Under the pieces are notes generated by a model that did not search any database, was not told the origin of the DNA, and saw only the letters and a program-made list of their open reading frames with translations. A program made the position numbers and the translations under genes. A DNA stretch of 2,519 nucleotides from NCBI RefSeq assembly GCF_003334355.1, contig NZ_QOWP01000074.1. One strand, written 5' to 3'. This stretch comes from Escherichia coli (lineage in GTDB: Bacteria > Pseudomonadota > Gammaproteobacteria > Enterobacterales > Enterobacteriaceae). Positions 102 to 1,527 of this stretch are shown piece by piece. Each line of letters begins with the position of its first letter. Positions within the stretch are counted from its first letter, which is position 1.

Positions 102-149
102 AGACCGCCGTTGATTTTGACCTTCTGGCAGCTTGCTGCCCGAACGATT

Positions 150-192
150 TTGCGTAGCAAAGTCTAGTGAGTACACTATCATCCTGATAGTG
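150..192 (+). promoter_or_regulatory. Candidate mob promoter overlapping a perfect hairpin (CACTATCA-TCC-TGATAGTG, 174-192); candidate oriT/nic region and Mob autoregulation site.
   Basis: The -35-like TTGCGT (150-155) and -10-like TACACT (172-177) are 16 nt apart. The 8-bp perfect inverted repeat with a 3-nt loop lies about 70 bp upstream of the mob start. In MOBV plasmids (pMV158, pBBR1) oriT lies just upstream of mob and overlaps its promoter. No nic site is identified. Confidence 0.3.
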
Positions 193-258
193 GCCCGCCG
201 GAGGTATCGCAATGCGCTCCCCCGCCTGGCTGAATGAATGCCGGAATCAGGGGGGAAC

Positions 259-1227
259 ATGGCGAACTACGCGATAATGCGCTGCAAAAAGCTGACGGGA
301 ATGGGAAGCGTGGCCAGCGCGTTGCAGCACTGCTACCGAGAGCGTGAGACGCCGAACGCTAACGCTGAACGGACACCAGAAAACTACTGCTCTGTGTCCA
401 AATCAACGGATCAGGCAATGGGGCGTGTGCGGGAGCTGCTGCCGGAAAAACGCCGTAAAGATGCGGTACTGGCCGTTGAATACGTTATGACAGCAAGCCC
501 TGAGTGGTGGAAAGAGGCCACACCACGGCAGCAGGCGGAGTTTTTCGCCCGCTCTGAGCAATGGCTGGAGAAGAAATACGGGAAGGATCGTGTTGTGGCG
601 GCGGTGGTTCACCGGGACGAGGCCACCCCGCACCTGTCTGCGTTCGTGGTGCCATTGACGCAGGATGGACGGCTGTCCGCGAAAGAGTTTATTGGCGGGC
701 GGTCAAAGATGCGTGAAGATCAGAGCACCTACGCTGAATCAGTAAAAAAACTGGGTCTTGAGCGCGGCATCGAGGGAAGCCGCGCCACGCATCAGACAGT
801 TCAGCACTACTACGAATCGATAAACCGTGGCACCCGTAGCCAGGTATCGATCTCGCCGGAGGCGCTGGAGCCGCGTGTATTGCGGAAGGGCATTTTCACC
901 AAAGACGTGGAAGATCAGGCAGCCATAGCCAAACGTCTAAGCCACGCAGTGAACGATGGCTTTGCAGGAACCATCGCTATGGCCTCTCAGAGCGCCCAGA
1001 ACGCAAAAAGAGCGCGTGAGCTACAGAAGACTATGGATGCGCAGCAGAAACGCCTACAGAGCGTCACAGAGCCTTTTAAGGGGCTTTCCAGAGAGCAGAT
1101 GACCGAAATCCTGATGATGGCTCAGCGGTTTAAGCAGCAAAACCAGGAAAAGGAAAAACAGCAGCGTATTGAACGTGAAAAACAGCGACAGACGCGATCG
1201 CGTGGCATGGGTGGTATGGAGCGTTAG
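259..1227 (+). CDS. mob: Plasmid mobilisation relaxase, Mob/Pre (MOBV) family, 322 aa from ATG 259. The ORF track's upstream in-frame ATG at 238 would add 7 residues (MPESGGN) and is less likely.
   Basis: N-terminus MANYAIMRCKK...SALQHCYRERE has the same layout as pMV158 MobM (MSYMVARMQK...FKHNER), including the HxxR motif with the conserved His. It also carries RKDAVLAVEYVMT and VVHRDEATPHLSAFVVP (HxDExxPH metal-binding motif), then GLERG and HQTV, all matching MobM from memory. A G-rich Shine-Dalgarno (AGGGGGG, 249-255) lies 3 nt before ATG 259. The long uninterrupted ORF is GC-rich and ends with a Q/E/K/R-rich C-terminal tail. Confidence 0.9.
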   Translation: MANYAIMRCKKLTGMGSVASALQHCYRERETPNANAERTPENYCSVSKSTDQAMGRVRELLPEKRRKDAVLAVEYVMTASPEWWKEATPRQQAEFFARSEQWLEKKYGKDRVVAAVVHRDEATPHLSAFVVPLTQDGRLSAKEFIGGRSKMREDQSTYAESVKKLGLERGIEGSRATHQTVQHYYESINRGTRSQVSISPEALEPRVLRKGIFTKDVEDQAAIAKRLSHAVNDGFAGTIAMASQSAQNAKRARELQKTMDAQQKRLQSVTEPFKGLSREQMTEILMMAQRFKQQNQEKEKQQRIEREKQRQTRSRGMGGMER

Positions 1228-1296: not shown

Positions 1297-1527
1297 TTAA
1301 TCATTCAGATGGTAATCATGTTTTTTTAAAATAGAAAAAGCTGCGTTTTTCTGCTTTGGTGACAAACCCTTAGTTGAGTATTTATTACCGCTAGTTCTAC
1401 GATATATGCTGTAAACACTGCTTAAAAAAGTACGCTCCCAAACAGTCAGAACCTCATTCTTTTTTAGTGAATCATGCAGCATTAGCCTGTCTACATTTTT
1501 AAAAAGTTTATCTTCAGCATTCATCAT
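1297..1527 (-). CDS. Hypothetical small basic protein (76 aa) of unknown function, probably co-transcribed with rep.
   Basis: The ATG-ATG start (1527-1522) overlaps the last 14 nt of rep in another frame. A GAAGG Shine-Dalgarno motif lies about 6 nt upstream on the - strand. Composition matches rep, and the stop is TAA at 1297-1299. No family recognised; the protein is Lys/Ser-rich. Confidence 0.4.
   Translation of the reverse strand: MMNAEDKLFKNVDRLMLHDSLKKNEVLTVWERTFLSSVYSIYRRTSGNKYSTKGLSPKQKNAAFSILKKHDYHLND

Follow-up and report, generated by a model that had tools for sequence, protein, structure and literature searches.

The window, as the whole stretch of 2,519 nucleotides analysed here is called, carries a mobilization gene (mob) on the plus strand, preceded by an oriT-like region, together with two open reading frames on the minus strand, one of which adjoins a set of iteron-like direct repeats (Table 1). 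The first 77 bases of the window are repeated exactly at its end (bases 1–77 = 2443–2519) and the sequence has full-length plasmid matches, from which it follows that the window covers the whole of a 2442-bp circular enterobacterial plasmid and runs slightly beyond one full turn. Around 33 complete plasmids of 2442–2445 bp match this 2442-bp unit at 99.6–99.9% identity; their hosts are Escherichia, Klebsiella, Salmonella, Shigella, and Enterobacter, and MOB-suite classes them as MOBV-mobilizable. The 167-aa product of the minus-strand frame beside the repeats is presumably the replication initiator, and had no match in Pfam or NCBIfam. No match was found in an Rfam scan of the window. Elsewhere, related mob cassettes accompany a RepL replicon, which suggests that mob and oriT travel as a module from one replicon to another.

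Table 1. Coordinates of the features of the plasmid, numbered from the first base of the window.
Feature	Position	Strand	Remarks
oriT-like region directly upstream of mob	146–204	+	Invariant columns, hairpins
Out-of-frame upstream ORF, 21 codons	212–277	+	Opens at ATG 212, overlaps the mob start
Seven in-frame codons (MPESGGN) added by the longest-ORF call	238–258	+	No Shine-Dalgarno sequence, clade-limited ATG, outside the family models
Shine-Dalgarno sequence of ATG 259, AGGGGGG	249–255	+	Anti-SD duplex of -10.5 kcal/mol
mob coding sequence, best-supported extent	259–1227	+	322-aa MobV-family relaxase and stop codon; Pfam, NCBIfam, RefSeq, start conserved in 18 loci
Motif I HxxR, His24-Cys-Tyr-Arg27	328–339	+	Aligned to MobM chain 4lvi_A; invariance
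Motif III HxDExxPH, H118-R-D-E-A-T-P-H125-L-S127	610–639	+	Column conservation
ORF	1297–1527	-	
ORF, 167 aa	1514–2017	-	Adjoins the iteron-like repeats
Four 22-bp iteron-like direct repeats (AGTACGATTAGTACTTGAGGTG) and a degenerate extra unit	2074–2161 (repeat region 2074–2183)		

The mob gene can be opened at more than one ATG. In a mechanical list of open reading frames the longest one runs from 238 to 1227 and encodes 329 aa, with a TGA stop (235–237) directly before ATG 238. In the same frame, 21 nucleotides (seven codons) downstream, lies ATG 259, which is preceded by A249, the run GGGGGG at 250–255 and AAC, and from which the N-terminus MANYAIMRCKKL is encoded. The preliminary description of this DNA had pointed to both features, namely an ORF track that opens Mob at ATG 238 and a G-rich Shine-Dalgarno (SD) sequence before ATG 259, with a product beginning MANYAIMR, and both observations hold. 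The strength of the candidate ribosome-binding sites was calculated as the duplex energy between the 20 nucleotides upstream of each candidate start and the 3′ end of the 16S rRNA. ATG 259 scores -10.5 kcal/mol, ranking fourth among the 82 ATGs of both strands, against a plasmid-wide mean of -4.0 kcal/mol (sd 3.0); ATG 238 (-3.6 kcal/mol) is at background level, and the internal ATG 277 gives -3.5 kcal/mol. ATG 259 has a short spacer of 3 nucleotides, counted from the last G, or of 4 if the GGAGG equivalent is taken to be 250–254. It is not uncommon for a genuine start to have another in-frame ATG a few codons before it, and the start ambiguity stems from the longest-ORF convention and from no feature of the sequence.

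The conservation of the start was analysed at the DNA level in 18 related loci with 67% to more than 99% identity in the leader, in which the conserved N-terminus was placed by tblastn. The set includes pBBR1 (Bordetella), pBGR1 (Bartonella), and plasmids of Pseudomonas, Citrobacter, Providencia, Vibrio, Glaesserella, and E. coli O157. All 18 loci have an ATG at the conserved position, encoding MA(N/A/V)(Y/F)AIMR or MAFAIMR, and all 18 have a G-rich SD a few bases upstream of it, whose GGGG core is an invariant block across 14 aligned relatives. Apart from the window, ATG 238 occurs in just two of the loci, both at least 97% identical to the window sequence; the codon at that position is ACG in relatives of 87–94% identity and ACA in the pBBR1 group, so that ATG 238 is a recent, derived one-base change (ACG to ATG) that arose in the clade of this plasmid. 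Between the invariant GGCCCGCCGGAGG and the SD, the relatives differ by indels not divisible by three, and in plasmid p2571-2 the whole equivalent of 205–245 is deleted. The pBGR1, Vibrio, Providencia, and Glaesserella loci each have an in-frame stop 6–13 codons upstream with no start in between, and the conserved ATG is consequently the sole possible start there. Judging from these alignments, no upstream reading frame is preserved 5′ of 259. The search for frame-breaking variants was extended to the clade of the window itself, where records with match lengths indicative of indels were read, and positions 238–258 were identical in each of them; as this segment is intact throughout the clade plasmids examined, the clade offers no internal frame-breaking test. 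It was also observed that the length of the SD G-run (250–255 in the window) varies among otherwise similar plasmids, in which the window and its equivalents in five related loci have runs of 5, 6, 7, 8, 9, and 10 G. This variation could be real slippage that alters the SD spacing, or homopolymer sequencing error.

At a larger evolutionary distance, an exhaustive phmmer search of 1.84 billion cluster representatives returned 7683 relatives, the best 149 of which were compared; these are diverged proteins (41–68% identity), and the alignment reaches the N-terminus in 138 of them. Starts at or near the conserved Met were found in 98 of the 138 (33 coincide with the ATG-259 form and 65 are one residue shorter), and five more are two residues shorter. 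Extensions of at least four residues occur in about 22 of the 138, with no sequence common among them or shared with MPESGGN. Many of these extended proteins have a Met exactly at the conserved position, which is the signature of over-long gene calls. The preliminary description had named a seven-residue extension carried consistently by the homologs as the observation that would speak against its reading; nothing like MPESGGN was found in any of the 138 diverged representatives. The underlying DNA was examined for eight family representatives. Four of the eight, which are more distant metagenomic loci, have in-frame stops 9–14 codons upstream and no alternative start, with SD energies from -7.6 to -14.6 kcal/mol, while two apparent exceptions have a GTG or a TTG at the conserved position behind an SD.

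The start at ATG 259 is already the reference annotation. The RefSeq protein WP_000024818.1, a MobV family relaxase of 322 aa annotated on plasmids 99.8% identical to the window, begins at the equivalent of ATG 259 and is identical to the ATG-259 product over at least the first 120 residues, which were those compared, with no difference found. The exact 322-aa sequence is present in at least 1000 contigs and the exact 329-aa sequence in about 45 (e.g., AHE41799.1). The choice of ATG 259 is thus a known result and an ordinary annotation clean-up, and what ambiguity is left is confined to longest-ORF tracks and a minority of records. Near-identical relaxases with differing annotated starts are found, for instance, in NZ_CP148338.1, NZ_CP114990.1, and CP099290.1. 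The starts annotated in this group are the conserved Met, a position 16 codons upstream (WP_077820565.1, WFV43444.1), and Met7, six codons downstream (WP_341484586.1), and a start seven codons upstream, corresponding to the 329-aa form, has been deposited as well. A truncated related mob N-terminus of 116 aa adjoins floR in Glaesserella parasuis pd76 and in the matching database hits; this copy is annotated as a plasmid recombination protein, is found on large resistance plasmids of several genera, and looks like a remnant carried along with the florfenicol resistance gene.

The family models draw the N-terminus at the same residue. Pfam Mob_Pre (PF01076) matches with an E-value of 5.7e-45, model positions 1–195 of 196 falling on residues 8–192 of the long ORF, and model position 1 coincides with residue 8, that is, with the Met of ATG 259. 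The NCBIfam MobV equivalog NF041497 scores 161.9 bits against a cut-off of 100, so the protein belongs to this family. The seven residues added by 238–258 lie outside both models. An AlphaFold2 model of residues 1–200 of the short form, built from a 75-sequence alignment, has a mean pLDDT of 93 and a pTM of 0.84; its first beta-strand spans residues 4–12, and a helix at 15–25 bears His24. The seven best PDB matches of this model in Foldseek are all complexes of the MobM relaxase domain with oriT (TM 0.68–0.77, best E 1.5e-14), and MOBQ and MOBF relaxases are far behind. Since the modelled chain enters the core sheet almost directly after Met1, the seven-residue extension would be an unstructured tail absent from the rest of the family.

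Among solved structures, the MobM relaxase domain of pMV158 (4lvi and related entries) is the only relative recognised by sequence. A phmmer alignment to chain 4lvi_A (E 2.1e-15) places the histidine numbered H31 in the long ORF and H24 in the short form on chain residue 21. MobM was crystallised without Met1 (PMC3105389), so chain residue 21 corresponds to His22 of the full-length protein. The preliminary description, counting from 259, had put the HxxR histidine at residue 24, close to His22 of MobM, and the alignment does pair these two residues; the comparison with MOBV relaxases that it had proposed, with both MobM and the family, also sets the N-terminus at the Met of ATG 259. The histidine of H-C-Y-R is encoded by CAC at 328–330, and neither His24 nor Arg27 varies among the 142 representatives whose alignment extends over these two positions. 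Motif I of MobM is likewise HxxR (PMC3105389), and DNA cleavage by this enzyme proceeds via a histidine and not via a tyrosine (PMC5863519, PMC6736028). By analogy, His24 is the predicted catalytic nucleophile of the window relaxase. For MobM itself, Pluta et al. reportedly identified His22 as the nucleophile in 2017.

The remaining motifs follow MobM less closely. At motif II, defined as NY(D/E)L, the sequence reads N42-Y43-C-S, of which only N42 is invariant in the subfamily alignment. We take the motif II Tyr to be absent from pBBR1 Mob, and in MobM this residue was reportedly found later not to be the nucleophile; hence motif II is not diagnostic for the pBBR1 branch. The core of motif III (HxDExxPH) is present, with D120, E121, and P124 invariant and H118 and H125 nearly so. 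The third His of this motif in MobM (HxDExxPHuH) is replaced by Ser127. Across the 149 representatives column 127 holds S, V, A, T, I, or Y, and His is never among these six commonest residues. On this alignment, the lack of the third His is a branch-wide difference from MobM and not a peculiarity of the window plasmid, and the metal site of pBBR1-type relaxases must, on the residues aligned, differ from that of MobM.

The closest known systems are pBBR1 of Bordetella bronchiseptica and, more distantly, pMV158 of Streptococcus. The first 120 residues of the window relaxase and pBBR1 Mob are 70.8% identical, and both proteins open with MA(A/N)YAIMRCKKL, encoded immediately from an ATG that has a G-rich SD before it. 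Neither protein has the third His of motif III; the window relaxase has Ser at this position and pBBR1 Mob presumably Thr. The upstream oriT-like sequences AAAGTCTAGTGAGTA and GGCCCGCCGGAGG are also the same in the two plasmids. They differ in the C-terminal part of Mob, in the replicon, and in both the sequence and the length of the leader between the invariant GGAGG and the SD; in addition, pBBR1 lacks ATG 238 and ATG 212, with a TTG at the position of the latter. MobM, the MobV prototype (PDB 4LVI to 4LVM, 5N2Q), resembles the window relaxase in its fold (Foldseek TM 0.77), in a sequence match that includes the common HxDExxPH motif, in an N-terminal beta-strand that begins 2–3 residues after Met1, and in the aligned HxxR. 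However, identity between the two proteins is only about 29%, the window relaxase has one extra residue ahead of the histidine, motif II reads NYEL in MobM and NYCS in the window relaxase, the third metal-site His of MobM is Ser, and the proteins measure 494 and 322 aa, respectively.

The oriT-like region contains two DNA hairpins (146–164 and 174–192) and has a DNA fold z-score of -2.2. In a 14-sequence alignment, the core AAAGTCTAGTGAGTA at 159–173 and the sequence GGCCCGCCGGAGG at 192–204 are invariant; the hairpins and both sequences are common to pBBR1, pBGR1, and distant metagenomic relatives, in which the core again lies upstream of mob. A passage in PMC4981023, citing Szpirer et al. 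(2001), reports that pBBR1 Mob binds its own promoter, which overlaps oriT, and autoregulates. On this precedent, positions 146–204 are most likely the origin of transfer, and we infer for them the double role of oriT and mob promoter. A consensus promoter scan of positions 1–400 returned no site. By analogy with the nick sequence of pMV158 (GTGTG/TT), the nick is probably made within TAGTGAG/TA, near 171/172.

Between this region and the mob start lies a leader with a start codon of its own. ATG 212 stands behind a perfect GGAGG (200–204) with a 7-nt spacer, and its predicted anti-SD pairing (-13.3 kcal/mol) is the strongest of all ATGs of the plasmid. ATG 212 and its frame are conserved only in close relatives; the GGAGG does not vary, including in loci that have no start codon after it, and in one distant relative it appears to be the SD of mob itself. 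In a sister lineage of 90–94% identity, a 1-nt indel puts the equivalent of ATG 212 in frame with mob. The resulting 16-residue extension, MRSPDWLDVRQNEGVS, is found in 66 of the 120 closest cluster representatives, which belong to this sister lineage, and in at least one RefSeq record. In a small and non-independent sample, of all 16-residue blocks this extension is on average the most diverse (mean diversity 0.049), and the first 16 residues of the core are invariant, a contrast that is only suggestive. Within 206–273, base pairing is possible between, on one side, the leader C-run (219–224) and the surroundings of ATG 212 and, on the other, the mob SD, ATG 259, and codons 2–3, and RNAalifold predicts C-run:G-run and UCGC:GCGA pairings that are kept in 93% of cells across 10 relatives. 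Covariation in this consensus structure is limited to one pair, and a covariation score as high was obtained in 95 of 500 shuffles; the single-sequence fold of the leader is no better than shuffles (z -0.64). On these figures, a hairpin sequestering the SD was rejected as an established feature of the leader. It could still be imagined that the leader is a translational control element, in which translation of the upstream ORF or the length of the SD G-run sets the amount of relaxase beyond transcriptional autoregulation. The evidence does not support this reading, which we consider unlikely.

Translation of the relaxase very probably starts at ATG 259, directed by the SD at 249–255, the product being a 322-aa relaxase of the pBBR1 type within MobV, and positions 238–258 are best read as untranslated leader. 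The most direct alternative takes ATG 238 as the true and only start, which would produce a 329-aa relaxase with MPESGGN as an N-terminal tail. It can call on ATG 238 being the first start codon of the ORF and on the deposited 329-aa form (AHE41799.1) with its 45 or so contigs, but it would have to do without an SD, with a pairing energy at background level and with a codon for which every relative beyond the closest clade has ACG or ACA, and the tail it adds lies outside the Pfam and NCBIfam models and resembles no extension in any family representative. We regard it as highly improbable. A softer version, in which both ATGs are used and a minor 329-aa isoform accompanies the main 322-aa protein, is also quite unlikely. 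No stop separates the two codons, which share a frame and probably one mRNA. The nearest promoter-like hexamers, identified by eye, lie at about 149–177, although the consensus scan found no promoter. Against this, nothing was found to bind a ribosome at ATG 238, the strong SD located between the two ATGs would position ribosomes on 259, and the extension is clade-specific and thus not selected.

The start might also be displaced in the other direction, to the internal ATG 277, which encodes Met7 of the short form. Five of the 138 representatives are called at the Met7 position, and the RefSeq protein WP_341484586.1 in NZ_CP148338.1 begins there too, six codons downstream of the conserved Met. 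However, ATG 277 has no SD, and starting at it would remove the conserved Y/F4, A5, and I6 of the first beta-strand. Moreover, the one such call examined at the DNA level (locus L026, protein P0135) has a TTG behind an SD at the conserved upstream position, and is therefore a gene-caller miss. The probability of this start is negligible.

With initiation at ATG 259, ribosomes would bind AGGGGGG at 249–255, and the seven codons added by ATG 238 would exist in the annotation alone. As the homolog of the MobM histidine, His24, carried on the first helix, would attack the scissile phosphate at nic and become covalently joined to the DNA, one strand being cut in this way at the plasmid's origin of transfer. 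H118, E121, and H125 of the HxDExxPH motif (118–125) would hold the divalent metal ion, and the substrate of the enzyme is probably the region 146–204.

That MobV relaxases have an N-terminal HxxR histidine was already established, and the practical value of the present analysis is that of a curation note. The correct start fixes the residue numbering (His24, Arg27, H118, D120, E121, H125) for structural or mutational work and avoids the expression of a spurious tail, in a family of small enterobacterial plasmids that is very common.
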